NCBI RefSeq assembly: GCF_988243305.1
Contig: NZ_OZ547136.1
Length of the DNA stretch: 64,000 nucleotides
Strand: one strand, 5' to 3'
The position numbers and the translations under genes were made by a program. Numbering within the stretch: position 1 is the stretch's first letter; the number at the start of each line of letters is the position of its first letter. The notes under the pieces were generated by a model. That model searched no databases and had not been told where the DNA came from. It saw only the letters and a list, made by a program, of their open reading frames with translations. This document shows positions 487 through 32,693 of this stretch, piece after piece.

Positions 487-2913
487 ATGTCCAAAAATGA
501 ACAAATGGTGGGCATCAGCCGCAGAACACTCGTTAAATCTACCGCGATAGGTTCTCTGGCGCTGGCTGCAGGCGGTTTTTCTTTACCGTTCACCCTACGC
601 AGTGCAGCGGCAGCGGTACAACAGGCCAGCGAAAAAGTGGTCTGGGGTGCCTGTTCCGTCAACTGTGGTAGCCGCTGTGCACTTCGTCTGCATGTTAAAG
701 ATAATGAAGTGACCTGGGTGGAAACTGACAACACCGGCAGCGACGAGTATGGCAATCATCAAGTACGCGCCTGTTTGCGCGGTCGGTCCATCCGTCGACG
801 TATTAATCATCCCGATCGCTTGAATTACCCAATGAAACGCGTGGGCAAACGCGGCGAAGGCAAATTCGAACGGATTAGCTGGGATGAAGCCCTGGATACT
901 ATCGCCAGTAGCCTGAAAAAAACCGTCGAACAATATGGCAATGAGGCTGTATATATTCAGTACTCTTCAGGGATCGTTGGCGGCAATATGACCCGCTCTT
1001 CGCCATCCGCCTCGGCGGTCAAACGCCTGATGAACTGCTACGGCGGTTCACTCAACCAGTATGGCTCCTACAGCACCGCGCAAATTTCCTGTGCCATGCC
1101 CTACACCTACGGCAGTAATGATGGCAACAGCACCACGGATATTGAAAACAGCAAGCTGGTCGTGATGTTTGGTAACAACCCGGCAGAAACCCGCATGAGC
1201 GGCGGTGGCATCACTTATCTTCTTGAAAAAGCGCGCGAGAAATCGAACGCAAAAATGATTGTTATCGATCCGCGATATACCGATACAGCTGCTGGTCGTG
1301 AAGACGAATGGCTACCTATTCGCCCGGGCACCGATGCCGCGCTGGTTGCGGGTATTGCCTGGGTATTGATTAACGAAAATCTCGTTGATCAACCTTTTCT
1401 CGATAAATACTGCGTCGGCTATGACGAAAAAACCTTACCCGCAGATGCACCAAAAAATGGTCACTATAAAGCCTATATTCTTGGTGAAGGTGACGATAAA
1501 ACAGCGAAAACGCCGCAGTGGGCTTCGCAAATTACCGGTATCCCGGTGGACCGTATCATCAAACTGGCGCGTGAAATTGGCACAGCAAAACCCGCTTATA
1601 TCTGCCAGGGCTGGGGACCGCAACGCCAGGCAAACGGCGAGCTGACTGCACGTGCTATTGCGATGTTGCCTATTCTGACGGGCAATGTCGGCATCAGCGG
1701 CGGGAATAGTGGCGCGCGTGAATCGACCTATACCATTACCATAGAACGCCTACCGGTGCTGGATAATCCGGTCAAAACGTCAATCTCCTGCTTCAGCTGG
1801 ACAGATGCTATCGATCATGGCCCGCAAATGACGGCAATCCGCGACGGTGTCCGGGGCAAAGATAAACTGGATGTGCCCATTAAGTTCATCTGGAACTATG
1901 CGGGAAATACCCTCGTTAATCAGCATTCTGACATCAACAAAACGCATGAAATTCTGCAGGACGAATCGAAATGCGAAATGATTGTGGTCATCGAAAACTT
2001 TATGACCTCATCGGCAAAATATGCCGACATTCTGCTGCCAGACCTGATGACCGTTGAGCAGGAAGATATTATTCCTAACGACTACGCCGGTAACATGGGA
2101 TATCTCATTTTCCTTCAGCCAGTCACCAGCGAAAAATTCGAACGCAAACCGATTTACTGGATCCTGAGTGAAGTCGCGAAACGTCTTGGACCTGAAGTCT
2201 ATCAAAAGTTCACTGAAGGTCGCACTCAGGAACAATGGTTACAACATCTGTACGCCAAAATGCTTGCCAAAGATCCGGCGTTACCGTCTTACGACGAACT
2301 GAAAAAAATGGGTATCTATAAGCGTAAAGATCCCAATGGTCATTTTGTCGCCTACAAAGCATTTCGTGACGACCCCGAGGCAAATCCACTTAAAACGCCT
2401 TCCGGTAAGATTGAAATTTACTCCAGCAAGCTGGCGGAAATTGCCCGTACCTGGGAACTGGAAAAAGATGAAGTGATAAGCCCACTGCCGGTTTATGCCT
2501 CAACCTTTGAAGGCTGGGACTCCCCTGAACGTAGCACCTTCCCACTGCAACTGTTTGGTTTCCATTACAAATCCCGTACTCACTCGACCTACGGCAACAT
2601 TGATGTCCTGAAGGCAGCCTGCCGTCAGGAGGTGTGGATCAACCCTATAGATGCACAGAAACGTGGGATTGCCAACGGCGATATGGTGCGGGTGTTTAAC
2701 CATCGTGGCGAAGTTCGGCTACCAGCCAAAGTGACACCACGCATTCTCCCTGGGGTTAGCGCTATGGGCCAGGGAGCCTGGCACGAGGCCAATATGTCTG
2801 GCGATAAAATCGACCATGGCGGCTGTGTGAATACGCTAACCACTCTGCGCCCTTCACCACTGGCGAAGGGAAACCCGCAGCACACGAATCTGGTCGAGAT
2901 CGAAAAAATATAA
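487..2913 (+). CDS. ynfE: Molybdopterin oxidoreductase catalytic subunit, DmsA paralog (selenate reductase) with twin-arginine signal
   Basis: 808-aa ORF; N-terminal SRRTLVKS Tat motif; Cys-rich CSVNCGSRC Fe-S motif; synteny with ynfFGH. Confidence 0.9.
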   Translation: MSKNEQMVGISRRTLVKSTAIGSLALAAGGFSLPFTLRSAAAAVQQASEKVVWGACSVNCGSRCALRLHVKDNEVTWVETDNTGSDEYGNHQVRACLRGRSIRRRINHPDRLNYPMKRVGKRGEGKFERISWDEALDTIASSLKKTVEQYGNEAVYIQYSSGIVGGNMTRSSPSASAVKRLMNCYGGSLNQYGSYSTAQISCAMPYTYGSNDGNSTTDIENSKLVVMFGNNPAETRMSGGGITYLLEKAREKSNAKMIVIDPRYTDTAAGREDEWLPIRPGTDAALVAGIAWVLINENLVDQPFLDKYCVGYDEKTLPADAPKNGHYKAYILGEGDDKTAKTPQWASQITGIPVDRIIKLAREIGTAKPAYICQGWGPQRQANGELTARAIAMLPILTGNVGISGGNSGARESTYTITIERLPVLDNPVKTSISCFSWTDAIDHGPQMTAIRDGVRGKDKLDVPIKFIWNYAGNTLVNQHSDINKTHEILQDESKCEMIVVIENFMTSSAKYADILLPDLMTVEQEDIIPNDYAGNMGYLIFLQPVTSEKFERKPIYWILSEVAKRLGPEVYQKFTEGRTQEQWLQHLYAKMLAKDPALPSYDELKKMGIYKRKDPNGHFVAYKAFRDDPEANPLKTPSGKIEIYSSKLAEIARTWELEKDEVISPLPVYASTFEGWDSPERSTFPLQLFGFHYKSRTHSTYGNIDVLKAACRQEVWINPIDAQKRGIANGDMVRVFNHRGEVRLPAKVTPRILPGVSAMGQGAWHEANMSGDKIDHGGCVNTLTTLRPSPLAKGNPQHTNLVEIEKI

Positions 2914-2970
2914 CCCACTACAACCATAAATTCTGGCATGACATTTTGTTTGAAAAGCAATAAGTGAGTA

Positions 2971-5397
2971 ATGATGAAAATCCATACCACAGAGGCGCTC
3001 ATGAAGGCTGAAATCAGCCGTAGAAGTCTGATGAAAACCTCCGCACTTGGCAGTCTTGCGCTGGCAAGCAGTGCTTTCACTCTGCCATTTTCCCAAATGG
3101 TCCGAGCGGCAGAGGCACCGGTAGAAGAGAAAGCGGTCTGGAGTTCCTGCACCGTTAACTGCGGGAGCCGCTGTCTGTTACGTTTGCATGTGAAAGATGA
3201 CACCGTGTACTGGGTGGAGTCTGATACGACAGGTGACGACGTCTACGGTAATCATCAGGTTCGGGCATGTTTACGCGGGCGCTCTATCCGCCGACGGATG
3301 AATCATCCTGACAGGTTGAAATATCCCATGAAGCGCGTCGGCAAGCGCGGTGAAGGTAAATTTGAACGGATAAGTTGGGATGAAGCCCTGGATACCATCA
3401 GTGATAATCTTCGGCGGATCCTTGAAGATTACGGCAATGAGGCTGTACATGTCCTGTACGGAACAGGCGTAGATGGCGGAAACATCACCAACTCGAACGT
3501 CCCGTACCGTCTGATGAACTCTTGCGGTGGTTTTCTCAGTCGCTATGGCAGCTACAGTACCGCTCAAATCAGTGCCGCAATGAGTTATATGTTCGGTGCC
3601 AATGATGGCAACAGCCCGGATGATATAGCCAATACGAAACTGGTCGTTATGTTCGGAAATAACCCGGCAGAAACCCGGATGAGCGGCGGTGGTGTCACTT
3701 ACTACGTCGAGCAAGCCCGAGAACGTTCAAACGCACGCATGATCGTCATCGATCCACGTTATAACGACACTGCTGCCGGGCGTGAAGATGAATGGCTGCC
3801 AATTCGCCCAGGCACCGATGGCGCACTGGCCTGTGCGATTGCCTGGGTACTGATTACTGAAAACATGGTCGATCAGCCATTTCTCGACAAATATTGTGTT
3901 GGTTACGATGAAAAAACGCTGCCCGCCAACGCACCACGTAACGCGCATTATAAAGCCTATATTCTGGGCGAAGGGCCTGACGGCATAGCTAAAACGCCGG
4001 AATGGGCAGCAAAAATCACCAGCATCCCGGCAGAAAAAATTATCCATTTGGCACGAGAGATCGGTTCAGCAAAACCTGCTTATATTTGTCAGGGTTGGGG
4101 GCCACAACGACACTCCAACGGCGAACAAACGTCCCGCGCTATTGCCATGCTTTCCGTTCTCACCGGTAACGTCGGCATAAACGGCGGCAACTCAGGTGTA
4201 CGCGAAGGTAGCTGGGATCTGGGGGTAGAATGGTTCCCGATGCTCGAGAATCCTGTTAAAACGCAGATTTCCGTCTTTACATGGACAGATGCCATCGACC
4301 ATGGTACGGAAATGACCGCGACCCGTGATGGTGTTCGTGGAAAAGAAAAACTGGATGTCCCCATCAAGTTTTTATGGTGCTACGCCAGTAACACATTGAT
4401 CAATCAACATGGCGACATCAATCACACCCATGAGGTGCTTCAGGATGACAGCAAGTGCGAGATGATTGTTGGCATTGACCACTTCATGACTGCCTCGGCT
4501 AAGTATTGCGATATCCTGTTGCCCGACCTGATGCCAACAGAGCAAGAAGACCTTATCTCTCACGAATCTGCCGGGAATATGGGCTATGTGATCCTCGCCC
4601 AACCCGCAACCTCAGCAAAATTTGAACGCAAACCCATCTACTGGATGCTGAGTGAAGTCGCCAAACGCTTAGGACCAGACGTTTATCAAACCTTTACTGA
4701 AGGCCGCAGTCAGCACGAATGGATCAAATATCTCCATGCGAAAACGAAGGAACGTAACCCTGAGATGCCCGACTACGAGGAGATGAAAACGACCGGGATC
4801 TTTAAGAAAAAATGCCCGGAAGAACACTACGTCGCTTTCCGCGCATTCCGTGAAGATCCACAGGCAAACCCGTTGAAAACACCTTCGGGGAAAATCGAAA
4901 TTTATTCTGAACGACTGGCGACGATTGCGGATACCTGGGAATTGAAAAAAGATGAAATTATTCATCCCCTTCCTGCGTATACCCCAGGTTTTGATGGCTG
5001 GGACGATCCCCTGCGGAAAACCTATCCACTGCAGCTAACGGGCTTCCACTACAAAGCGCGTACCCACTCCAGCTACGGCAATATTGATGTGTTACAGCAG
5101 GCCTGCCCACAAGAGGTGTGGATCAACCCTATTGATGCTCAGGCACGCGGTATCCGTCATGGCGATACCGTGCGGGTATTTAACAATAATGGAGAAATGC
5201 TGATTGCCGCAAAAGTGACTCCGCGTATTCTGCCTGGCGTTACCGCCATCGGGCAAGGTGCGTGGCTTAAAGCGGATATGTTTGGTGACCGGGTCGATCA
5301 CGGCGGCAGTATTAATATTCTGACCTCTCACCGCCCTTCACCGCTGGCAAAGGGAAACCCGTCGCACAGCAATCTTGTCCAGATCGAAAAGGTTTAA
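2971..5397 (+). CDS. ynfF: Molybdopterin oxidoreductase catalytic subunit, second DmsA paralog
   Basis: 808-aa ORF highly similar to the preceding ORF; Tat motif SRRSLMKT; start may be the ATG at 2974. Confidence 0.9.
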   Translation: MMKIHTTEALMKAEISRRSLMKTSALGSLALASSAFTLPFSQMVRAAEAPVEEKAVWSSCTVNCGSRCLLRLHVKDDTVYWVESDTTGDDVYGNHQVRACLRGRSIRRRMNHPDRLKYPMKRVGKRGEGKFERISWDEALDTISDNLRRILEDYGNEAVHVLYGTGVDGGNITNSNVPYRLMNSCGGFLSRYGSYSTAQISAAMSYMFGANDGNSPDDIANTKLVVMFGNNPAETRMSGGGVTYYVEQARERSNARMIVIDPRYNDTAAGREDEWLPIRPGTDGALACAIAWVLITENMVDQPFLDKYCVGYDEKTLPANAPRNAHYKAYILGEGPDGIAKTPEWAAKITSIPAEKIIHLAREIGSAKPAYICQGWGPQRHSNGEQTSRAIAMLSVLTGNVGINGGNSGVREGSWDLGVEWFPMLENPVKTQISVFTWTDAIDHGTEMTATRDGVRGKEKLDVPIKFLWCYASNTLINQHGDINHTHEVLQDDSKCEMIVGIDHFMTASAKYCDILLPDLMPTEQEDLISHESAGNMGYVILAQPATSAKFERKPIYWMLSEVAKRLGPDVYQTFTEGRSQHEWIKYLHAKTKERNPEMPDYEEMKTTGIFKKKCPEEHYVAFRAFREDPQANPLKTPSGKIEIYSERLATIADTWELKKDEIIHPLPAYTPGFDGWDDPLRKTYPLQLTGFHYKARTHSSYGNIDVLQQACPQEVWINPIDAQARGIRHGDTVRVFNNNGEMLIAAKVTPRILPGVTAIGQGAWLKADMFGDRVDHGGSINILTSHRPSPLAKGNPSHSNLVQIEKV

Positions 5398-15236: not shown

Positions 15237-15566
15237 TCAGGCAAGTTTCACCATGATCATTCCAGCCAACAGCAAGACCAGGCCAATCCAGCCTTTACGA
15301 TTTAACCGTTGACCAAACAAGATCCAACCTGCGGCTAACGTGGCGGCAATACCAAACCCGCCCCACAATGCATAAGCGACAGACAAGTCGATCCCTTTAA
15401 CGGCCTGAGAAAGCGCACTAAAGGCAGCCAGCACCGCCGCCAGGGAGAGCAAGCCAAATATTTTGCGACGAAAGCCGTCAGAAAATTTCAAAAAAACGTT
15501 AGCAACGATTTCCAGCACGATTGCCAATGCCAGCCAGGCGGCGTGAACCCATTCAAACTGCGCCAT
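15237..15566 (-). CDS. mdtI: SMR-family spermidine export protein subunit
   Basis: 109-aa 4-TM protein; overlapping gene pair with mdtJ. Confidence 0.9.
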
Positions 15567-15918
15567 GGTTCACCTCCAGTTCAGGTTTACGCGCTTTACG
15601 GGTACCTGATTTGATCAATACAATCCCGGCCACCAGGGTGGTTAACCCGGCAATTTTCATCAGCGATAAACTTTCGTCGAATAACAAAACGCTAAACAAG
15701 GTAATAAATAAAATACCGATACCTTCCCACAGCGCATAAGCCACGCCTAAGGCGATTTTTTTAACGGCGAAAGAGAGAAATATATACGACAGAGAAATCA
15801 TCACCAGCATTAAAATAAAGCCGCCATTTCCCTCACTGACGCTCGCCCATTTCATTGACAGCGTACCGGTAATTTCCGTAGCAATAGCCAGGCCTAATAA
15901 AATCCAATAAATATACAT
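15553..15918 (-). CDS. mdtJ: SMR-family spermidine export protein subunit
   Basis: 121-aa 4-TM protein overlapping mdtI start. Confidence 0.9.
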
Positions 15919-16466: not shown

Positions 16467-17231
16467 ATATAACTTATTTCACATAACACGTTGATTTAAT
16501 TAAATAATTTTCACCGCAAAAAGTGCCAAAAATCGCAAAATGACTACACCAGTGACTACACCGTTCGGTGCACTGTATGAAACAACGTGGAACAAATAGA
16601 CACAAGAAATATACAGGCGGATCATCTTTCCAGGGGGAAGCGCACCAATTCATGAGGGGCGTTAATGTCGATATGGGGATCCCCACCTACCGGAATTTTT
16701 TTCCGGTTAAACGTTAATCAGGCTGGTGGGCTTTACCTGTTCGGTAGGTGTTATGATTATCGTAATACCTTTCCCCCAATGGGGTAAAAGCATCAACCGT
16801 AACGAAAGTCGTTATGGTTGCCACTGATACCCCAAATTTGGGTATCACGAGTAAGACCCAAAATCTGGGTGTTACTCTTACTACCCAAACTACGGGTAGT
16901 TTCCGTAGTTTCATGGTCGAGTTGCAGATCTGCAACTCCCCCATTAACCACAGGCGAATTTCCGCCTTCGGTCATTCCTTAATCATCTGCGTAATCATAA
17001 TGATTATTCAGCAAGCGCAATTTTGCACTTTGCTTAAAGTTCAGCGAGTTACCGCGCCGACTTCCTCAAATTGAGGTTTCCGAAAATATCAGCGGGTTAG
17101 CGATTAAGCTGATCATTAATTAAACTGCGAAAATTTCGTAGTTTGTGACTGTCTTTCAGGCAGCTTGTTAACAGTCCTCAGAAGCGAGGGATGTAGCCAC
17201 CCATTTTTGGTCCGTCGGGAATATCAACCAG

Positions 17232-17513
17232 TTACCGCCGCAACCGCTCCGGCTTCTTCCAGTGGTACGTTATTTTCTCCTTCTCCCGATACATCTCCAC
17301 GCGGCGACGGTAGGCCAGCAACTCAAGAACTCTGGTTCGTATGTTGCGCATATCCACGCCATTAAGTTCTATACCATCACGGCGCATCACCTCAGCAACA
17401 ACACGCGCATAGTTTTCGGCTGTCACGCTGTCCGGCTGCGTGGCCTGTTCGTCAGCCTGCTGGCTGATTCCGGCAACGCGGCGGATTAATCCCGTTATTT
17501 CGGCTTCTGTCAT
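17232..17513 (-). CDS. Hypothetical protein, last gene of the packaging operon
   Basis: 93-aa ORF immediately downstream of the large terminase on the same strand; no recognisable motif. Confidence 0.4.
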   Translation of the reverse strand: MTEAEITGLIRRVAGISQQADEQATQPDSVTAENYARVVAEVMRRDGIELNGVDMRNIRTRVLELLAYRRRVEMYREKEKITYHWKKPERLRR

Positions 17514-17526
17514 GCTGCTGACCTCA

Positions 17527-19188
17527 TTACACCCCGCTAAATTCTTCCAGTTTCTGGCGGTGGCTGTCGCTTATATCAAAAGCAAAATCCTCATGCTCTG
17601 CCTGGAATGTACCAAACGCCATCAGCGCCGCCACGCTCGGGTCTATCTTGTTCGGTGATTTTTTCTTGTTCGGCTTGATATTGGCGTTCGCGTCACTCTG
17701 CATCACGACGTTACTCATCGACCAGGACAACACCGGATCGCCACGATGCACAATCACCCTGCGGTTAACAAAAACTTCGAACGATTTCGCCGCCGGACTG
17801 AATCTGAGGTAGGTTTGCGGGAACGGCTCCACCTCAAAACCTGCCCCCTGTAATTGCGTTCTGAGATGCGTGGCGTTCCACGTATCAAAGCCCACCAGCC
17901 TGATATTAAATTTCTCCGCGTCCTGCATGATGTCATCTCTGATCCGGTCGTAATCAATGCAGTCGCCAGGCGTTGTGCGTATCCAGCCTGCTTTAGCCCA
18001 CTGACGATAGATGGCGCGGTTTTTATTGGCGGGGTTCTGTAGCTGAAATTCCGGCAGATAGTGACGGGAAACCAGCATAATGGTTTTACCGACCGGAAAG
18101 GCATAGCACACGCTGGAAATATCGCTGGTTGATGATAAGTCCAGCCCCGCGTAACACTCCTGGCCGTGTAAATCTTCCTCCGTGAACGTTCCGGCACACT
18201 CAGCCCATGCGCCGTTACCCATCCACGGGGTAGCCCCCAGGCACCAGATATTAAATCGCTTTGTCATCATCTCCACCCACTGCGACGGAATACCCCGCGC
18301 TTTCTGGATGGTTGAGGCCAGTTTTTCACGATCCACGGAAACATCAATATTAGGGTTCGCCTTTATCCACATCGCCGGATCATCAACCTCGTTTTCGTCG
18401 TCCAGTTCGTAAATCAGTACAAAAATTGAATCGTTGACCTCTTCGCCGTCCAGGATCTGGCAGCAATAATCATAGTGCTGCTTACAGGCTGAAACGACGT
18501 TACTGCCTGATGTGGTAATAGCAAATAACAGCCCTTCGGGACGTGCGCCCATCCCCAGCTCAAGCGCGGAATAAACGCCGTTATCGGGGTGCAAGTGGTA
18601 TTCGTCCACGATGGAAAGGCTGGGGTTTGTTCCCTCGATGGTTGCCGCTTTTGCTGCCAGCGGCTTTAACAGGCTGTTGCTTTTCGGGTGTATCACCTTA
18701 TGCGCCTGAATATTCACCCGCCTGCGTAACGGTCGGGATAAAAGGCACATCTGACGCGCATCATCAAAGACGATCCGCGCCTGGTCACGGCTCACCGCTG
18801 CGGTGTAAATATCCTGCTGACCGTTCTCCATAATCAGAAACCAGTTAGCCAGAATCGCGGCGGTCGTGGATTTCGCATTTTTGCGCGGCACTTCGATAAA
18901 GGCGCTCGTGTATTTGCGCCGTCCGGTGGCCTTAACCTTAAAGCCGAGGATGCACGCAAAGGCGAACTGCTGCCACGGCTCCAGCTCAATGGGTCTGCCA
19001 CGCATCGGCCCTTTTACGTGCGGGCACACCCTGGAAAAGGCAATAAACCGCTCCACAACCTCACGATCGAACGTGTAAAGGGGGCTTTCAAGGTCCGAAA
19101 AGTACCGTTTAACGGCCTGTTTCAGCCGTTTACAGGCCGGAATTTTGCCCGTTTTTACGTCTTCTGCGTACTTATTCCAGGCGGTCAA
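17527..19188 (-). CDS. Phage terminase large subunit
   Basis: 553-aa ORF with ATPase N-terminal region and nuclease C-terminal region typical of Terminase_1-type TerL; follows TerS. Confidence 0.85.
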   Translation of the reverse strand: MTAWNKYAEDVKTGKIPACKRLKQAVKRYFSDLESPLYTFDREVVERFIAFSRVCPHVKGPMRGRPIELEPWQQFAFACILGFKVKATGRRKYTSAFIEVPRKNAKSTTAAILANWFLIMENGQQDIYTAAVSRDQARIVFDDARQMCLLSRPLRRRVNIQAHKVIHPKSNSLLKPLAAKAATIEGTNPSLSIVDEYHLHPDNGVYSALELGMGARPEGLLFAITTSGSNVVSACKQHYDYCCQILDGEEVNDSIFVLIYELDDENEVDDPAMWIKANPNIDVSVDREKLASTIQKARGIPSQWVEMMTKRFNIWCLGATPWMGNGAWAECAGTFTEEDLHGQECYAGLDLSSTSDISSVCYAFPVGKTIMLVSRHYLPEFQLQNPANKNRAIYRQWAKAGWIRTTPGDCIDYDRIRDDIMQDAEKFNIRLVGFDTWNATHLRTQLQGAGFEVEPFPQTYLRFSPAAKSFEVFVNRRVIVHRGDPVLSWSMSNVVMQSDANANIKPNKKKSPNKIDPSVAALMAFGTFQAEHEDFAFDISDSHRQKLEEFSGV

Positions 19189-19528
19189 GCTCGTCCTCTT
19201 CTTCTGTTTCCGGTGGATTTTTACGGCGGCTTATCGGGTCAAAACCGAGCAAGGAGGCCATTTTTATCATCACCCTTTCAGCGTCGGATTTTGCGCTTAA
19301 TGCGGGGTTTCTGCTCTCGCCGCCCTGACTGTTAACAATGCTGAACCCGCGCGCCGCAAGGTCTGCAACGGCTTTCCGGTAAATGGAGTAGTTGACACAA
19401 TACAGTTCCAGATTGCTCCAGTCGGCGGGGGTCAGGTCTCCCCGTTCCGCAAGCTGCCGCGATTTTTCCCGCCACTGCTTCACGGCGATGTCATCCAGGT
19501 AGGCGGGGGCTTTCGGTGGTCTTGCCAT
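19172..19528 (-). CDS. Phage terminase small subunit (P27-family-like)
   Basis: 118-aa ORF with acidic C-terminus, immediately upstream of and overlapping TerL; family assignment from recall. Confidence 0.7.
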   Translation of the reverse strand: MARPPKAPAYLDDIAVKQWREKSRQLAERGDLTPADWSNLELYCVNYSIYRKAVADLAARGFSIVNSQGGESRNPALSAKSDAERVMIKMASLLGFDPISRRKNPPETEEEDELDRLE

Positions 19529-19817
19529 ACTTATTTTTTCGCCAGATTATTTTTCAAAAAATTCCCGTGCATAAAAATTTGAGGAGGCGTTCGGTGCCCG
19601 GCGGGGTCGGGTTTGTCCTGAAAACGCCCCCCACCCCGTCATACAGCCTCATCAGCGATTGCGGAAACATTCCATAACCTCGCGGTCACGGTCGGTTAAT
19701 CGCTTCGCTGTGATGCGTTCTGCGCGTCCTGACGCTTTATCTTTATGCCCTGTTTCCTGTGTCTTCCATGCGTCACGCTGCCTTATAAGTCCACGGATAA
19801 GGCGGTTTTGTTCCCGC
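19529..19817. other. Candidate cos/packaging-site region between HNH endonuclease and TerS
   Basis: 289-bp intergenic gap with G+C-rich tracts (GGTGCCCGGCGGGGTCGGG, CGCCCCCCACCCCG); location inferred by analogy with HK97-type HNH-dependent cos phages. Confidence 0.3.
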
Positions 19818-20258
19818 TCATTCATCAGCGTCATACATCCAGTTATTGCGGTTAGCGGACCGTTCTTCCTCTTCACGAAATCCACCTGCGGCACGCTTGC
19901 TTTTTGTTGCCGGATCAAGCCATTTCGTTTTCTGGTTATGACACGCCTGACACAATGGCTGATGGTTCCATTCGGGCCAGAAGAGAACATCATCGCCGCC
20001 ATCGATGGGGATAATGTGATCCACCACCACGGCGGGCGTATATATCCCCTTCTCAAGGCATCGCACGCATAACGGGTTTTTACTCAGATACATGGCGCGG
20101 TATTTGTCCCACTGTCTGGAGTACCCACGCGCGCGGCGGTGTCCTCGTCTGGCATCCTCTGCACGCCATGCCGCCCGCCTGTGCTCCTCACACTTACCGG
20201 ACTTAACGCGCCTGTTACAGCCTGGTTCTGTACATCGTCTTAATGGTTGCCACGGCAT
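19818..20258 (-). CDS. HNH endonuclease
   Basis: Cys-rich N-terminus (CTEPGCNRR...CEEH) and VVDHIIP...NHQPLCQACHNQKT HNH motif; sits immediately upstream of terS. Confidence 0.8.
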   Translation of the reverse strand: MPWQPLRRCTEPGCNRRVKSGKCEEHRRAAWRAEDARRGHRRARGYSRQWDKYRAMYLSKNPLCVRCLEKGIYTPAVVVDHIIPIDGGDDVLFWPEWNHQPLCQACHNQKTKWLDPATKSKRAAGGFREEEERSANRNNWMYDADE

Positions 20259-20554
20259 CAGTACACCCCCACATCACGGTAAGCCGTCCAGAGTGCGCCT
20301 ATCGTCATGGGTACGCGCGTTTTTGCGTTATCCGCGACAATCTGGCGATTTTCATACAGGTGAGCGATAAACATCATGCAGCCAATCTTTATGGCTGGCG
20401 TGAACTCCAGCCCGTCATCAAAGCGCCTGCCTATGTGTATCTGGCACGCCTCAAGCGATGCGGCAATGTATCCGCTGATTAACTGGTCTTCATCGTCGCC
20501 ATCGATGCGGCAATGGAGTTTCACTTCTTCCAGGGTGATAAGTTCTTCTGTCAT
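20258..20554 (-). CDS. Phage gp6-like head-tail connector protein
   Basis: 98-aa ORF MTEELITLEEVKLHCRIDGDDEDQLISGYIAAS... resembling the gp6-like connector family; within the head module. Confidence 0.6.
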   Translation of the reverse strand: MTEELITLEEVKLHCRIDGDDEDQLISGYIAASLEACQIHIGRRFDDGLEFTPAIKIGCMMFIAHLYENRQIVADNAKTRVPMTIGALWTAYRDVGVY

Positions 20555-20889
20555 TTTTCCGCGCCCTCACGACAAAGAATTTCAAGGCGTGTCCTGGCGG
20601 CATCCGGCAACGGTTGCCCGATGATATTCAGTACACGCCCCGCCAGCGGCCCTGTATTGACCTTTATCCGACTGGTGGCGTTGATGTCCTTCCGGTAGCG
20701 TATCCATATCCTTACCGTTCCAGTCGCCAGCTCTGCACCTGATGAAATGGCCTCCTTGCTGCTGATCATGTTCACGCTTGCCCAGAGTGTGTGACCGTCC
20801 ACCCACGTTTCGAGTATTTCGCCGGTTATATCCCTGGTCTGTTTCAGGGTCTGAATCGTTACCCTGTCACGCAGTCGCCCTATGTTCAT
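20551..20889 (-). CDS. Phage head closure / head-tail joining protein
   Basis: Start taken at MNIGRLRDRVTIQ, overlapping the portal stop by 4 nt; resembles head-tail joining family. Confidence 0.6.
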   Translation of the reverse strand: MNIGRLRDRVTIQTLKQTRDITGEILETWVDGHTLWASVNMISSKEAISSGAELATGTVRIWIRYRKDINATSRIKVNTGPLAGRVLNIIGQPLPDAARTRLEILCREGAEK

Positions 20890-22097
20890 TCCGGTTTTTC
20901 TCCCTCGCTGATTTTTACTTCCTGTTTCCATGCCTGGCTGAACTCATCACCACCATCACGCGGGGACAGCCCTTCACGTTCGCGGGCTTCGTTCGGGCAC
21001 ATAACGCCGGATTTGATGCCGCGTTCATAGGTGGCAAAGCGTTCGCCAGGTGTGGCCCGTAACAGGTCCGCGCTGTCAAACTCCACCTGATACCGGATAC
21101 CAGGTACAGGCGAGGCCACCAGCAGGGCGTTTTTTATCTGCTGCTCAAAGTTCGCCAGCCACGGGCGCATCGTCATGGTGAGAAATGCGCGGCTTGCCTC
21201 GCTGAAGTTGCTGTAGGTGCTGTTGCTGTATTCCTGCAAAAAAATCGGCGAGACGTTGAACATTCGGGCGATGTCTTCAATGGTGAAGCGACGGGAGGCC
21301 AGCCATTCGGCATCCTGATTACTCATGCCCAGCTGCTGATAGCTCATCCCCCCTTCAAGGATGGGCGTTTTTCCGGCGTTTCTGGCCCCTTTGTAGCGTT
21401 CCAGTGCGGCTAATGCCTGTTTGCCCTTCACGCCGTCCAGCCATTCGCCTGACGTGATAACCCCTGCCGCCATCATGCCATCACGCATCACGCTCGCGCC
21501 GTGGCGTTGTTGGGCCAGCCCAAGCCCCAGCGATTCGCGGCAGATGGTTACAGGTGAGCGCCCCATAAAACCGTCATCCGTGGAGTAACGAAGGTGGAGA
21601 ACCTCCCACGGTAAATAGTTGCGGGTGTTTCCGGTGTAGGCGTCAGTGATGCAGTAGCGCCAGTTATGATCACCTGTCTGCTCCACGTTCACCGACTGCG
21701 GCGGGTAAGGATGTAAAGCCACCGGAAAACCATCACGCCCCCACTGAATCACCGCATAAGCATTACCGTTTAACAGGCAGTGGCGGATCATCATTCGCTT
21801 AAACTGGTAGGGAGTCTGCCACGCGTTCGGGCGCTCGTTGAGGATGTGATCGACCGGATGAGAATCAAGCCACTCGCGGGCCTCCTTCCCCTTCTCATTG
21901 CGTACCAGGTACAGGTAACACGGCATGGTAGCCACCGCCTCAGAGATGACCGTCACGGCGTTCATGACGGCGGGCAGTGATTCCGCTGTCCCCGATGATA
22001 CGTACTCACCCGCCCCCGTGTTCGATGTGCCAGCCAGCGCCATAAACTCATCAAGCGTCATGCTGCGCTGCTCTTTTTTTCTTCTGAAAGGCCACAT
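20886..22097 (-). CDS. Phage portal protein (HK97 family)
   Basis: 403-aa ORF immediately downstream of the prohead protease; composition and size typical of HK97-type portals. Confidence 0.8.
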   Translation of the reverse strand: MWPFRRKKEQRSMTLDEFMALAGTSNTGAGEYVSSGTAESLPAVMNAVTVISEAVATMPCYLYLVRNEKGKEAREWLDSHPVDHILNERPNAWQTPYQFKRMMIRHCLLNGNAYAVIQWGRDGFPVALHPYPPQSVNVEQTGDHNWRYCITDAYTGNTRNYLPWEVLHLRYSTDDGFMGRSPVTICRESLGLGLAQQRHGASVMRDGMMAAGVITSGEWLDGVKGKQALAALERYKGARNAGKTPILEGGMSYQQLGMSNQDAEWLASRRFTIEDIARMFNVSPIFLQEYSNSTYSNFSEASRAFLTMTMRPWLANFEQQIKNALLVASPVPGIRYQVEFDSADLLRATPGERFATYERGIKSGVMCPNEAREREGLSPRDGGDEFSQAWKQEVKISEGEKPE

Positions 22098-22098
22098 A

Positions 22099-22671
22099 TC
22101 ACACCCCCGCTAAATCCACCCACCAGCGGCGATTATCCGCACGCGGCATTTTTTCGGGGTGCTGCTCATACAGGGAACGGCGGGCCAGCTCCACGCCGGA
22201 ATCGGGGTAAGCCGGTACCGATGTAACGGTAATTTCGTACAGTTCCGCCACCAGCACGGTGCGCACGCATGGATCTGTTGTGGTATCCCATACATCCTTA
22301 CGGGAGCGAAAGCCAAAGCTCATCCCCGAGATGTCCCCACGCTTAACCAGTTCGATAACGTCGCGCCCTGTACTGGTATCCGGTGGGGTCAGTTCAAAGC
22401 GTAACCCTGTTTCGTCCTCTTCCAGTTTCAGCGTGCCGGAACGGGTGCGCCCCAGTAACATGCTGTGGTCATGCTCATACAGGCCGCGAACGTCATTACC
22501 CGCCGCAAGCCACTCAGTAAACGCCCCCCGCTGGAATTTTTCGTAAAACTCCCCCCATAGCAGTTCTGAAAGCTTATCCCAGCGAACAACGTAGCCCGTC
22601 AGCGTACCGGCTCCGCTGGTAGTGATTTCCGATGACCGGATTTCCATACTCTTCATAATTTTTTCACCCAT
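22099..22671 (-). CDS. HK97-family prohead maturation protease
   Basis: 190-aa ORF between major capsid and portal genes; sequence resembles the S78-type prohead protease family. Confidence 0.75.
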   Translation of the reverse strand: MGEKIMKSMEIRSSEITTSGAGTLTGYVVRWDKLSELLWGEFYEKFQRGAFTEWLAAGNDVRGLYEHDHSMLLGRTRSGTLKLEEDETGLRFELTPPDTSTGRDVIELVKRGDISGMSFGFRSRKDVWDTTTDPCVRTVLVAELYEITVTSVPAYPDSGVELARRSLYEQHPEKMPRADNRRWWVDLAGV

Positions 22672-22710: not shown

Positions 22711-23868
22711 TTAATCGTCGTCCTGTGGCAGTTCCAGAATCTTGATCGCGTTCGAATCCACCACGCCACCGCCTAAATATTTCTGCGTGAAAATTTTGAT
22801 GAAGCCCGGCTCTGTGAGGTTGTCCGGTCTGGTGCGAACACCTGTTTCGTGATCAACAATGTAGTAACCGCGTTTGAAGTCACCCAGGGCAATAACGTTA
22901 TCCGGCATAAACTCCAGATATTCGACCGGAAGGCCCAGTAACGTATCAGGATCACCCGCCTGTAAACGGTCGCGCCAGATGTAATCACCGTTCGCGTTCT
23001 TCACCTTCTGAAGTTTTGCCGCCGTCGTGGAGTTAACCACCCAGACCGCGTTTTTGCGGTATTTTTTACGTAATGCAAATTTCAGGTCGATCAGCGGGTC
23101 CGCAGATGTCCACGCCAGAGATTCGGAAGGTTTAATTACCTGCAACGTACCAAAATCACGCTCTTTGTCGTTCTTCTCTGCACGGGGTACGGATAAAAAA
23201 CCTTTTGCTTTTTTGTCACCGTCGCCCACAACCAGATCGCTTTCTTCGGTTTCCGTGAAGGTGTCGCCAATCTCGCCCGTCAGCCATGAAAGGATGTCCA
23301 CATCGGAAAAATCCACGATTTCCTGTGTGGTGCGCGGGTACGCATAGACCGGATACAGCTTAATGCTCACCTCGTTAATCTGCGGGGTGCTGGTCTGTTC
23401 GCGTGTCTTACCCTCTTCACCGTGGTTAACGGTCGCACCGCCAGCGGAAACAAGCTGCTTAAACTCGTTGCTGCTGATTTTCTTCACGGTACAGATGCGG
23501 CGCATGGTGGACTCATCCGCCAGCATTCGCATGATTTCGGTGTTCAGTTCGGGGATAACGGTATAACCACCATCAGCGGGAACGCCTGTACTTAATGCGC
23601 GGGTTTCACCTGTCAGAATGTAGTTGCGTAGTTCTGCGGGGTCAGTGGTCTGGCTGCTTTTACCTGGCTTGCTGCGCTCTTCGTCTGCAATGGCTTCAAG
23701 GCGGGAAATGTCTTTATCGAGGGATTCAGCTTTAGCGCGTAATTCGTCAAATTTTGCGCCCTCAGCATCGTTAAGACTGCGGTTTTCTTTTTCCGCGTTC
23801 TCCAGCATGTCGCGCATCTGATTTTTAATGGCGGTTTTCTGCTGGCGTAATTCGATTATTCTCGGCAT
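22711..23868 (-). CDS. HK97-fold major capsid protein with N-terminal coiled-coil (scaffold-like delta) domain
   Basis: Start taken at the ATG for MPRIIELRQQKT; the track ORF extends to a TTG at 23913; N-terminal charged coiled-coil followed by a capsid-like body. Confidence 0.8.
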   Translation of the reverse strand: MPRIIELRQQKTAIKNQMRDMLENAEKENRSLNDAEGAKFDELRAKAESLDKDISRLEAIADEERSKPGKSSQTTDPAELRNYILTGETRALSTGVPADGGYTVIPELNTEIMRMLADESTMRRICTVKKISSNEFKQLVSAGGATVNHGEEGKTREQTSTPQINEVSIKLYPVYAYPRTTQEIVDFSDVDILSWLTGEIGDTFTETEESDLVVGDGDKKAKGFLSVPRAEKNDKERDFGTLQVIKPSESLAWTSADPLIDLKFALRKKYRKNAVWVVNSTTAAKLQKVKNANGDYIWRDRLQAGDPDTLLGLPVEYLEFMPDNVIALGDFKRGYYIVDHETGVRTRPDNLTEPGFIKIFTQKYLGGGVVDSNAIKILELPQDDD

Positions 23869-23906
23869 AAAAAAAAGTCCTGGGGTTAAGTAAGGAACTC
23901 CAGGAC
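23869..23906 (-). terminator. Stem-loop plus U8 run immediately abutting the capsid gene start codon
   Basis: Minus strand reads GTCCTGGAGTTCCTTACTTAACCCCAGGAC followed by TTTTTTTT then ATG. Confidence 0.5.
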
Positions 23907-24111
23907 GCGGCAAACACTCAACCGTTTTTCATAAGGAAATCAGCAATCGCACCGATCGTTTTCCCGCCTGGTAATGAATATTGGCGAGCACATTAACAGG
24001 CGGGAAAGTGGCCCCAGCGTCCTGGCACCACGGGCGAGAATAATCATGATTCAGTTCGGGTAAAATATGCCGATCCGCTCAGTGAACAACGTGGAACAAC
24101 CACGAACAAAT

Positions 24112-24149
24112 AATTTACAAAAAATAACAAAAAGCCGGATTGCTCCGGC
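24112..24149 (-). terminator. Rho-independent terminator downstream of the small gene 24170..24394
   Basis: Minus strand GCCGGAGCAATCCGGC hairpin followed by TTTTTGTTATTTTTT. Confidence 0.6.
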
Positions 24150-24169
24150 TGTATGTGCTGTATGGGTGC

Positions 24170-24394
24170 TCAGTCTCTGATCCCTTTCAGAAATTCTATC
24201 AATGCATCTGTCTGTTCAGGATTTACTGCCAGCATTTCACCGGATAGCGCGCAACGAACAAAACCATGATGATCCTTTTCAATCAGTGCGCCCGTCTCCA
24301 GGAATGCGCGGTAATCATTGATGCTCATCGTCTCCATGTTGTCAGCATGGTATTTATCACGCTGTTTTAATATCTCATCAAATTTCATCGGCAT
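24170..24394 (-). CDS. Small hypothetical protein (74 aa) in a terminator-bounded cassette
   Basis: ATG at 24394 preceded by AGAGGAAAAAACA RBS; terminators on both sides. Confidence 0.55.
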   Translation of the reverse strand: MPMKFDEILKQRDKYHADNMETMSINDYRAFLETGALIEKDHHGFVRCALSGEMLAVNPEQTDALIEFLKGIRD

Positions 24395-24488
24395 TGTTTT
24401 TTCCTCTGTTGTGTCTGTTTGTTTCAGATAGTAACTATGCCTGACCGTGACGAAAACCCGGTAATGCGCCATACCGTTTCAACTGGTG

Positions 24489-24512
24489 CAAAAAAAGCCG
24501 GATTTCTCCGGC
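24489..24512 (-). terminator. Rho-independent terminator ending the replication-region operon
   Basis: Minus strand GCCGGAGAAATCCGGC hairpin followed by TTTTTTT. Confidence 0.6.
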
Positions 24513-24563
24513 TGTGTGATTAGCTGTCCTGGTAATTGCGCCATATTTCATCACCAGCACCAT

Positions 24564-30381: not shown

Positions 30382-31611
30382 TTATTTTCTTCTGGCTACT
30401 GGTAGCGTGGTTACGTTTTCATGTGTTCCCGCCAGTATCCCTAACCGCTCCGTCCACATATCCAGCGCATTGCGTTTAGCATCCAGATAACGGGAATGAT
30501 TATAAACTCGCTGCATTCCTGGCATCTGGTGGCCTGTAAGCTGCTCCACGACATGCGGATCAACGCCTAAATCGTTCAGCATGGTTGTAAAGGTGCGCCG
30601 GATGTCATGCAGTGACCAGTGAGGATGATTAAGCCTCCTGTGCGCTAATCTTCCATACTGCGATACGCTGGCCTCCTGTTTCACTTCCCCCAGCAATAAG
30701 CCCGTGTGCCTGTTCTGCTCCACCAGCTGCGTGACGAACGGCAGGATCGCTTCCGGTATGGGCCGGAATATTGCGACCTTCGTTTTGCTGTGCTCCTTCG
30801 GAACGGTCCATAGCATTTCCGTAAAATCCCACTCCCCGATCTCCGATAACCTCAGTTCTACCGTTCTGGCTCCGAAGACAATCAGGAGGCGGATTAACGC
30901 GACGTAGTAAGGGGAGAATATTTTTTTGTCCAGTGCCTGCAATAATTCGCCAAGTTCTTTGTTACTTAAGACACGTTCGCTTATATCCGGTTTTTTCCCA
31001 ACGTCCGCCACGTTCAGATCGTCCAGAACGTTGCTGATTGCATAGCGCCGCCTACGGCAGAACTTAAGCGCCTGTTTGCACGCCTGTAGCACGAATCCGG
31101 CAGTAACAGGCGTTCGCTTTGCCACCTGGTCAAAACAGGCCAGCCAGTGCCGTAGCTCGCATTTATCCAGCGGCATAGCACCAATCTGCTGTATTACGTG
31201 ATTATTAAGTCGCCTTTTCAGGGCGATATAATCCACGCGGTTTTCCTTTACGTAATACTCAAGCCAGTAGGTGAGCGCATCGCCAACCGTTACGGGCTTT
31301 AACGCTTCCTGTACGGTGTAATTCATCTCATGACGTGGATTTTTCCCCTCAGCCAGCCATGTGCGACACTGTGCGGCTTTTTCCCTGGCTGCTTTCAGGC
31401 TCAGATCAGGATAACTTCCCAGCTTAATGCGTTCGGGTCGTGTCTCCCTTCCCGTTCCGGCCCTGTATGTGAAATACCAGGTCAATTTCCCTGATGTTAA
31501 ATATTTCACGCTCAGGTTTCCGCCATCACTATAAAACGTGTTTTTCTCCGCTGGCTTACCATGAAGTTTCCTTAGCAAGGTATCGCTCAGTTTGTTCATT
31601 GCTCTGCTCAC
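30382..31611 (-). CDS. int: Tyrosine site-specific integrase (P4-type)
   Basis: 409-aa ORF; C-terminal catalytic region with HDIRRTF (H-x-x-R) and a downstream tyrosine; located at the island right end. Confidence 0.85.
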   Translation of the reverse strand: MSRAMNKLSDTLLRKLHGKPAEKNTFYSDGGNLSVKYLTSGKLTWYFTYRAGTGRETRPERIKLGSYPDLSLKAAREKAAQCRTWLAEGKNPRHEMNYTVQEALKPVTVGDALTYWLEYYVKENRVDYIALKRRLNNHVIQQIGAMPLDKCELRHWLACFDQVAKRTPVTAGFVLQACKQALKFCRRRRYAISNVLDDLNVADVGKKPDISERVLSNKELGELLQALDKKIFSPYYVALIRLLIVFGARTVELRLSEIGEWDFTEMLWTVPKEHSKTKVAIFRPIPEAILPFVTQLVEQNRHTGLLLGEVKQEASVSQYGRLAHRRLNHPHWSLHDIRRTFTTMLNDLGVDPHVVEQLTGHQMPGMQRVYNHSRYLDAKRNALDMWTERLGILAGTHENVTTLPVARRK

Positions 31612-31786
31612 GTTTTACCCCCTCTTTACGAAAAAGTGACTACACCAGTGACTACACCGATCGTTGCACAAAGGGCTACAACGTGAAACAAGCTGGAACA
31701 AGGAAAATCACAAATCTGTTGATAATCAAAAACATAATGCACAGCCTGAAACATTATGAAACAGCAAAAAACACTAAATGATAAAA

Positions 31787-31795: not shown

Positions 31796-32693
31796 TCTTA
31801 ACCCGCTGGTGCAACACATGGTCCGCTGGCGAGTGCCGCGTGTACTGGCGGTGTCGATTTTGATGACCATCATCGTGATGGCGATGGTGTTGCTGTTAGC
31901 TTATCTGGGTTCCGCACTCAACGAGTTGACGCGGACGTTACCGCAATATCGCAACTCTATTATGACGCCGCTGCAAGCGCTTGAACCGTTGTTGCAACGC
32001 GTAGGGATTGACGTCTCAGTTGACCAACTGGCGCATTACATTGATCCGAACGCGGCGATGACGTTGCTCACCAACTTATTGACGCAGTTATCTAATGCCA
32101 TGTCATCAATCTTTTTATTGCTGCTGACGGTGCTGTTTATGCTGCTCGAAGTGCCACAATTGCCCGGAAAATTTCAGCAAATGATGGCGCGTCCGGTTGA
32201 AGGGATGGCGGCGATTCAGCGTGCGATTGACAGTGTTTCTCATTATCTGGTGCTGAAAACAGCCATCAGCATCATCACCGGCCTGGTCGCCTGGGCGATG
32301 CTCGCCGCACTCGATGTTCGCTTCGCTTTTGTCTGGGGATTGCTGGCCTTTGCGCTTAATTACATCCCGAATATTGGTTCAGTTCTCGCGGCAATCCCCC
32401 CTATCGCTCAGGTATTGGTGTTTAATGGCTTCTACGAAGCGTTGCTGGTGCTGGCGGGATATCTGCTGATTAATCTGGTCTTCGGCAATATTCTGGAGCC
32501 GCGCATCATGGGGCGTGGGCTGGGGCTTTCCACATTGGTGGTATTTCTGTCGTTGATTTTTTGGGGATGGTTGTTAGGACCGGTGGGTATGCTGCTTTCC
32601 GTGCCGTTGACAATTATTGTCAAAATTGCGCTTGAACAAACAGCGGGTGGTCAAAGCATCGCCGTTCTGTTAAGCGATCTCAATAAAGAGTGA
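31796..32693 (+). pseudogene. tqsA: 3' portion of tqsA (AI-2 exporter) separated from its 5' end by the island
   Basis: In-frame continuation [24 protein letters not shown]...; track ORF starts at GTG 31809. Confidence 0.8.

Follow-up and report, generated by a model that had tools for sequence, protein, structure and literature searches.

Evidence for an HK97/SfV-type cos site between the HNH endonuclease and small terminase genes of a capsid-forming PICI

A non-coding stretch of 123 bp (19529-19651), lying between the HNH endonuclease and small terminase (terS) genes of a 15.1-kb capsid-forming PICI (cf-PICI), is very probably the cos site of that island, an HNH-dependent one of the HK97/SfV class. 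The window analyzed was a 64,000-nucleotide stretch of DNA (NCBI RefSeq assembly GCF_988243305.1, contig NZ_OZ547136.1), and all coordinates refer to it. That this interval holds the packaging cut site of the satellite, in the form of an ordinary HK97/SfV-type cos, is supported by position, by conservation, by homology to mapped sites and by the physical ends of a relative; the cut itself was placed to the nucleotide by homology. Synteny with HK97-like phages would lead a specialist to expect this finding. The cf-PICI literature that was searched states that the ends are cos ends and gives neither their position nor their sequence. Placement of a cf-PICI cut at the nucleotide level is what the present analysis adds, and the site is a previously unplaced HK97/SfV-class HNH-dependent cos in a known kind of satellite.

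The island lies on the minus strand of the window and is of the EcCIEDL933 type. It is bounded by a direct repeat (D2) of 76 nt, imperfect and 76% identical, with the common core AAA[A/G]TGACTACACCAGTGACTACACCG; the att repeat at the terL-side end lies at 16537-16612 and its partner at the integrase-side end at 31633-31708. The spacing of the att repeats is 15,096 bp, and the island fits the description of a cf-PICI, which is 10-18 kb long, encodes an integrase (here at 30382-31611, minus strand) and is flanked by att sites. Along the minus strand the genes follow in the order capsid (22711-23913), protease (22099-22671), portal (20886-22097), head closure (Hc1, 20551-20931), adaptor (Ad1, 20258-20554), HNH endonuclease (19818-20258), terS (19172-19528) and terL (17527-19188). 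The HNH protein, a terminase accessory nuclease, matched PF01844 and phrog_144 (1.2e-44); TerS belongs to the P27/Terminase_4 family (PF05119, 1.3e-23), and the large terminase carries ATPase and nuclease parts (PF03354, 1.3e-25; PF20441, 9.6e-50; phrog_9, 2.5e-178). The published cf-PICI layout has the same order (10.1101/2022.09.08.507074); EcCIEDL933 and KpCIDSM30104 share its island type and gene order. The ORFs longer than 100 aa that were scanned within 16.5-31.7 kb were packaging, head, replication (AAA_25), Rha-like, integrase or unknown small genes. There was no tail module and there were no lysis genes among them, and an island of only 15 kb is too short to hold a tail module. Of 5,426 complete E. 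coli genomes, 532 (~10%) carried the 1.2-kb region spanning HNH to terS, chromosomal every time, and the region of the island was 98% identical to the O157:H7 copies.

The preliminary description had taken 19529-19817 for a 289-bp gap and the likely packaging site. The length of the interval between HNH and terS was right, but the interval is not empty, as its upstream 58% is coding. A small conserved gene for a basic protein of 57 aa occupies 19652-19825 on the minus strand, so only the 123 bp from 19529 to 19651 are non-coding. The gene product matched the phrog_3173 profile (E 7.5e-37, full profile covered), and NCBI PGAP annotated a hypothetical protein at the same locus in a 99.4%-identical genome. 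The reading frame was intact in 128 of 132 distinct relatives, where the product was 50, 57 or 58 aa long (three in-frame length classes), and dN/dS was 0.27-0.40. Its ATG overlaps the HNH stop codon (ATGAATGA); the protein begins MNEREQNRLIRGL and has the C-terminal sequence RDREVMECFRNR. The AlphaFold model showed two helices and a disordered basic linker, and its pLDDT of 72 and pTM of 0.36 were too little for a fold search. An ORF at 19652-20056 on the minus strand had been dismissed as spurious. It does overlap the HNH gene out of frame, but the verdict holds only for its long N-terminal extension, and its 3' 57 codons are the real gene described here. A conserved gene in the interval had been named as grounds for giving up the packaging site; such a gene does fill 19652-19817, and the cos site is not displaced by it.

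The two G+C-rich tracts that had drawn attention to the interval are present on the plus strand (GGTGCCCGGCGGGGTCGGG at 19593-19611 and CGCCCCCCACCCCG at 19625-19638), but as a signal they did not hold up. They are statistically unremarkable by themselves: the local GC content was only 0.37-0.63, and for a 13-mer like the G-run with at most 2 mismatches, 1.8 occurrences are expected per window by chance. It is the conservation and position of the blocks that exceed chance, and not the G+C tracts themselves. The first tract (19593-19611) is mostly variable spacer, although its GGCAC end is conserved and the predicted cohesive 10-mer (19584-19593) adjoins it.

On the coding strand the stretch reads stop-TGAGGCTGTATGAC-GGGGTGGGGGGCG-TTTTCAGGAC-AAACCCGACCCCGCCG-GGCAC-CGAACGCCTC-CTCAAATTTTTATGCACGGGAATTTTTTGAAAAATAA-TCTGGCGAAAAAATAAGT-ATG(terS). 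A conservation profile was made from 24 lineages, gathered through their HNH or TerS proteins with no DNA motif used, which over the surrounding 450 nt share only ~57-60% identity with the window. Three elements were near-invariant in these lineages: the G-run/TTTTCAGGAC block, the GGCAC, and a 37-nt block starting CTCAAATTTTT. All features of the stretch are given on the minus strand. The conserved G-run and T-tract, GGGGTGGGGGGCG-TTTTCAGGAC, lie at 19615-19637, with the G-run proper at 19625-19637 and its end 42 nt ahead of the coding-strand cut; the G-run may serve cleavage or termination. The spacer that follows (19599-19614), which makes up most of the tract GGTGCCCGGCGGGGTCGGG, is variable in sequence and fixed in length (about 13 nt), reading CCCGACCCCGCCG in the window versus CCTCAAGGCGCCA, ACCCCAGCCGCAA and others in relatives. 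The conserved GGCAC (19594-19598) would abut the right end of the packaged genome.

The predicted 10-nt cohesive end lies at 19584-19593, where the coding strand reads CGAACGCCTC and the plus strand GAGGCGTTCG. Nicks are predicted at 19583/19584 on the coding strand and at 19593/19594 on the plus strand, and the packaged genome is predicted to start (+1) at base 19583 on the minus strand. The C-rich, semi-conserved 10-mer takes different forms in different lineages (CGAACGCCTC, CACCCGCCCC and others), so the nicks in this island could be off by one or two bases. Next to it stands the near-invariant left-end block CTCAAATTTTTATGCACGGGAATTTTTTGAAAAATAA (19547-19583), a T-tract, GC core and T-tract, which is largely retained in the Pasteurella cf-PICI Pmp8; a 29-mer of this block occurred once in the window versus 0 occurrences expected. 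Within the block, a putative TerS-binding site is placed at 19556-19572 (GC core CACGGG at +15 to +20, T6 tract at +23 to +28, the two spanning 19556-19569), by analogy with the placement of the corresponding site in HK97. The 18 bp that remain before the terS ATG (19529-19546) form the leader and ribosome-binding region, which was poorly conserved and variable in length across the 24 lineages. The A+T-rich block at 19547-19583, which the preliminary description did not mention, is the most conserved element of the interval.

An imperfect inverted repeat (19551-19567/19608-19624) centered on the 10-mer in the window was considered as a two-fold symmetry at the cut. It was rejected as a conserved feature, as complementarity was at background across the 24 lineages (mean 0.22).

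Conservation alone cannot separate a cos site from regulation, and the conserved blocks stand directly upstream of terS, with a TTGAAA-like hexamer in the A+T-rich segment 30-40 nt before the terS ATG. They could on these grounds be read as expression signals for terS-terL (a promoter or operator, a translational control or a leader RNA), with the real packaging site elsewhere. Neither a sigma-70-like site nor a terminator was found on the coding strand of the interval, there was no Rfam match, and the RNA fold was no better than that of shuffled sequences (z -1.2). As described below, the same blocks also surround experimentally mapped ends in SfI, HK97 and EPP-1, and a related unit-length contig ends there. 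We regard the expression-signal reading as very unlikely. The two roles, cos and regulatory, are not mutually exclusive.

The cos reading was compared with cos sites that have been mapped. The 123-nt stretch aligned with the HNH-terS junction of SfV at z=5.8, a score reached by 0 of 1000 dinucleotide shuffles, and with Pmp8 at z=9.4, where the same blocks stand within a 127-nt gap without the small gene. The alignment with HK97 was marginal (z=2.2), which fits the proteins: the island TerS was 36% identical to SfV TerS (E 4e-21) and unrecognizable against HK97 gp1, to which no similarity was detectable. A PDB sequence search with the island TerS gave no matches. The island HNH was 39% identical to HK97 gp74 (E 3e-19).

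In the SfV alignment, CGAACGCCTC (19584-19593) fell opposite TGCCCGCCCC, the 10-mer mapped in SfI and present also in SfV and ST64B. Run-off sequencing of SfI virion DNA left a 10-nt gap of exactly this sequence (PMC3636060), as expected if recessed 5' ends were copied or 3' tails trimmed. The ends of HK97 have been mapped with a 10-nt 3' overhang, and its record starts and ends at cos (PMC9410871). In HK97 the minimal TerS site spans +15 to +29, CTAACCCGATTTTTT, and its A/T tract is essential (PMC11331095); the site numbering of that study agrees with the HK97 record. For Edwardsiella phage EPP-1, whose sequence was corrected with PhageTerm (PMC11043334), the record ends in ...TGCCCGCCTC, homologous to the 10-mer, and starts with CCCCAATTTTTATGACCGCG.

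When the record ends were joined, a common order emerged: G-run, 40-42 nt, C-rich 10-mer, T-tract, GC core, A/T tract and terS. The distance from G-run to mapped end was 40-42 nt for HK97, SfV, ST64B and EPP-1. CCCGCG or ACCGCG followed by A5 was found at +15 to +25 in SfV, ST64B and EPP-1, and a T/A-tract with a GC core at +15 to +30 in HK97 and EPP-1. The blocks seen in the window are carried by ST64B, EPP-1, AbIPP1 and HK97. The earlier proposal of a packaging site between HNH and terS is thus supported for the non-coding part, which is homologous to the mapped cos junctions of SfI/SfV, HK97 and EPP-1. Three marks of an HK97/SfV-type cos are present in the island, namely the HNH-terS-terL position, a TerS homologous to that of SfV, and nucleotide homology that includes the C-rich 10-mer.

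SfI, SfV, ST64B and EPP-1, which have an HNH and a P27-family TerS, are the closest counterparts. Their cos likewise lies in an HNH-terS gap of ~125 nt, their TerS proteins are homologous to that of the island, and the order of elements is the same (G-run, ~41 nt, C-rich 10-mer, T-tract, GC core, A/T tract); run-off sequencing (SfI) and PhageTerm (EPP-1) place the genome ends at the 10-mer that is aligned with that of the island. In contrast to these phages of 37-40 kb, the island is a 15-kb tail-less satellite. Its order is circularly permuted relative to the prophage map, with HNH after the head genes rather than the lysis genes, it has the extra 57-aa gene between HNH and cos, and its 10-mer and core sequences differ (CGAACGCCTC; GCACGGG). 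HK97 (gp1, the TerL gp2, and gp74) has its cos between the HNH gene and terS and its G-run 42 nt before the cut, as in the island. The GC core and essential A/T tract of the HK97 TerS site lie at +15 to +29, where the putative site of the island has CACGGG and T6 at +15 to +28; since the island TerS has no detectable similarity to HK97 gp1, the assignment of this site draws on position and composition. The distance from HNH to the end is 319 nt in HK97 and 234 nt in the island.

A likeness to HK97 could also mean that the site is a copy of a helper phage cos, cut by the helper terminase as in P4 and the cos-type SaPIs. The overall architecture does resemble that of HK97, and EcCIEDL933 has as its helpers HK97-like cos phages that depend on HNH (10.1101/2022.09.08.507074). 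This has a slimmer chance still than the expression-signal reading, because HNH, TerS and TerL genes belonging to the island itself immediately surround the site. The putative TerS site is ATGCACGGGAATTTTTT here versus CTAACCCGATTTTTT in HK97, and the low z of the HK97 alignment and the TerS unrelated in sequence to gp1 likewise argue against a helper site. Mutants of the packaging-module genes of EcCIEDL933 abolished transfer in all but one case, the exception being the hypothetical gene 1792, whose mutant severely reduced it, and packaging of the island and of the helper is mutually exclusive (10.1101/2022.09.08.507074).

Physical ends were found in a relative of the island. A motif scan of IMG/VR returned the metagenomic contig IMGVR_UViG_3300022664_000095 (15,518 bp), a related cf-PICI. 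The contig starts at CTCAAATTTTT (first bases C-TCAAATTTTTACGCACGG), and its other end, found in an HNH-anchored search, is ...TTTTCAGGACAAAACCCAAGCCGCAAGGCAC (...GCAAGGCAC, finishing in GGCAC). The overlap of two contig loci proves that the left-end locus is base 1 of the contig. Between these flanks, 73 related loci carry precisely 10 nt (CGCCTGCCCC, CACCCGCCCC or the like), which the contig is without. The contig thus ends exactly at the homologous 10-mer, as a packaging site between HNH and terS would have it, and it appears to be a unit-length linear molecule minus the predicted cohesive 10-mer. The 10-mer is lost and not duplicated at the contig ends, as expected for a trimmed 10-nt 3' overhang, and only from this loss do we infer the 3' polarity. 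This evidence on the ends was obtained in a Klebsiella-type relative, with a terS of ~83% identity, and from one end-anchored contig in total. A metagenome scan with the left-end motif gave 69 hits, all of them internal (integrated copies) and 0 end-anchored, and the only hit for GGCAC joined directly to CTCAAATTTTT without the 10-mer was an unrelated chance match.

Many small terminases recognize pac sites within their own gene. With 58% of the interval taken up by a conserved gene, the remainder might be unremarkable spacer and packaging might proceed by the headful (pac) mechanism, from terS or elsewhere. We consider this the least probable of the readings. The non-coding spacer was far more conserved than the flanking coding sequence, and the related unit-length contig has fixed ends that lack the 10-mer, which is not the picture of headful packaging. 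In every mapped relative, HNH-associated P27-family terminases are cos enzymes (PMC3636060, PMC9410871). The packaged DNA of cf-PICIs, including KpCIDSM30104, has been reported to have cohesive cos ends (10.1101/2025.02.11.637232).

For a cos site at 19529-19651, the following course of packaging may be proposed. Once a helper has induced excision and replication, the TerS encoded by the island would bind the block just downstream of the cut, its likely contact being the GC core and T-tract at ~+15 to +28 (19556-19572). TerS would position TerL, and TerL and HNH would then make two nicks 10 nt apart, flanking CGAACGCCTC (19584-19593) and leaving 10-nt 3' cohesive ends. Packaging would run from 19583 through terS, terL, the att junction, int, the replication genes and the capsid genes, and would stop at the next cos, past HNH and the small gene, to give a unit-length genome of ~15.1 kb. 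The G-run 42 nt upstream of the cut would be a second element, probably for cleavage or termination. The TerS contact, the strand-by-strand assignment of the enzymes and the role of the G-run are what we infer here. In a cos site of this class, cleavage would also need the HNH protein.

The lambda cos (cosQ-cosN-cosB) follows the same logic, with a nicking site that has the TerS-binding region on the packaged side and an upstream element on the other. Lambda (gpNu1/gpA) differs in having a 12-nt 5' overhang and another TerS family, whereas the island site would be HNH-dependent, with an overhang of 10 nt that is presumably 3'. A lambda-type cos was considered for the island and rejected: the cosN sequence GGGCGGCGACCT was unmatched in the island with 2 mismatches allowed, and the TerS is of the Terminase_4 type and not the Nu1 type.

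The cf-PICIs are widespread and package only their own DNA, into capsids that they build themselves. The 10-mer, the candidate TerS site and the upstream G-run provide concrete sequences to mutate, and a segment of ~90 bp (19547-19637) is a candidate minimal cassette for satellite-specific transduction. In viromes, the same blocks offer a simple way to recognize the ends of cf-PICI genomes. The annotation of the interval is also corrected, in that a real small gene is present.

In the enterobacterial cf-PICIs, the G-run follows directly after the phrog_3173 gene, which is wedged between HNH and cos. The phrog_3173 protein could be a third component of HNH-dependent cos sites, one that binds the G-run or the terminase and sets satellite-specific cleavage or termination. 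We hold this to be rather unlikely; if it were true, it would explain the mutual exclusion of cf-PICI and helper packaging. The small gene might be the 'hypothetical gene 1792' of EcCIEDL933.

Two Klebsiella records were also inspected for their ends. The record of Klebsiella phage P12620-1 was rejected as evidence of ends, as its cf-PICI-like block is joined at terS codon 2 and breaks off within the small gene; the record probably reflects a chimeric assembly. The sequence of vB_KppS-Ant was assembled from particle DNA with Nextera XT and matches part of the genome of its host, K. pneumoniae DSM 30104, at >99% identity (PMC8006926). Its record (LR881103, 16.5 kb, linear) ends directly after TTTTCAGGAC and begins 22 nt before terS; at the predicted cut it is without the 10-mer, together with 21 nt on one flank and 38 nt on the other. 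The record thus breaks at the same place as the related contig and agrees with its ends. Such a loss of ends would be expected from a tagmentation library of a linear molecule. The isolation host of vB_KppS-Ant, K. pneumoniae DSM 30104, is the strain after which the cf-PICI KpCIDSM30104 is named.

The HNH gene of the island and its predicted packaging cut site (cos) are separated by a small conserved gene of 57 codons (19652-19825, minus strand; phrog_3173), whose ATG overlaps the HNH stop codon. Two helices are predicted in the encoded protein, and an R..RE..EC.RNR motif at its C-terminus is invariant. The gene was found in enterobacterial cf-PICIs and was absent from the Pasteurella element Pmp8 and from phages SfV, ST64B and EPP-1. 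In the published cf-PICI EcCIEDL933, mutation of "hypothetical gene 1792" results in a severe drop in transfer (10.1101/2022.09.08.507074), and the phrog_3173 gene could be that locus. Acinetobacter phage AbIPP1 (PQ201581.1) also carries a small ORF between HNH and a cos-like region (72 aa, 342-560 of the compared record L360); this ORF had no match in PHROG and no evident relation to phrog_3173.

A G-run of the form GGGG.GGGG..GG was located at 19625-19637 of the window, on the cos side of the small gene, at 676-689 in HK97 (L088) and at 740-752 in SfV (L089), and was also present in ST64B (L358) and EPP-1 (L362). In the cf-PICIs and in all four of these phages, it precedes the mapped or predicted cut by 40-42 nt. 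AbIPP1 (L360) likewise has a G-run ahead of a C-rich block, a resemblance at the level of sequence blocks. No description of a G-run preceding the cut was found in the papers on HK97 cos that were consulted.

vB_KppS-Ant (L002, LR881103.1) was reported as a filamentous ssDNA phage of a novel genus (PMC8006926). Its genes include an HK97-type capsid, portal, protease, HNH, TerS, TerL, integrase and primase. Given this gene content, vB_KppS-Ant is a cf-PICI from K. pneumoniae DSM 30104, and its published description appears to be wrong. The gene at 2036-4333 of this record is annotated as "tail length tape measure protein". In Klebsiella phage P12620-1 (PQ569648.1; L004, L356), a cf-PICI-like block of ~16 kb (90.6-106.5 kb) closes the 106.5-kb "complete genome", with the junction to unrelated DNA at codon 2 of terS and the other limit inside the small gene; this record is probably a chimeric assembly. 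The unverified 1,621-bp record "Escherichia phage ECO95 1-6-1" (OR845787.1, L003) is a cf-PICI fragment of the Klebsiella-type lineage spanning HNH, the small gene, cos and terS.

Imperfect direct repeats of 76 nt, the probable attL and attR sites, lie at 16537-16612 and 31633-31708 and set the island length at 15,096 bp. Outside them are an SMR-type efflux gene (15553-15918) and, on the other flank, an AI-2E transporter ORF (31809-32693), which may be truncated at its N-terminus, given that its profile match begins at position 40 of 327. Within the island, a 93-aa ORF matching phrog_1561 over its full length (17232-17513, minus strand; E 2.9e-56) lies directly 3' of terL and is the final gene ahead of the att site. 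Upstream of the capsid gene, a small ORF (24170-24472) is bracketed by two copies of a 27-nt element (24129-24155 and 24492-24518), each with the GC hairpin AAAAAGCCGGATTGCTCCGGCTGTATG, which may act as terminators or regulatory hairpins. Outside the island, at the start of the window, are two adjacent plus-strand ORFs of equal length, 808 aa each (487-2913 and 2971-5397).
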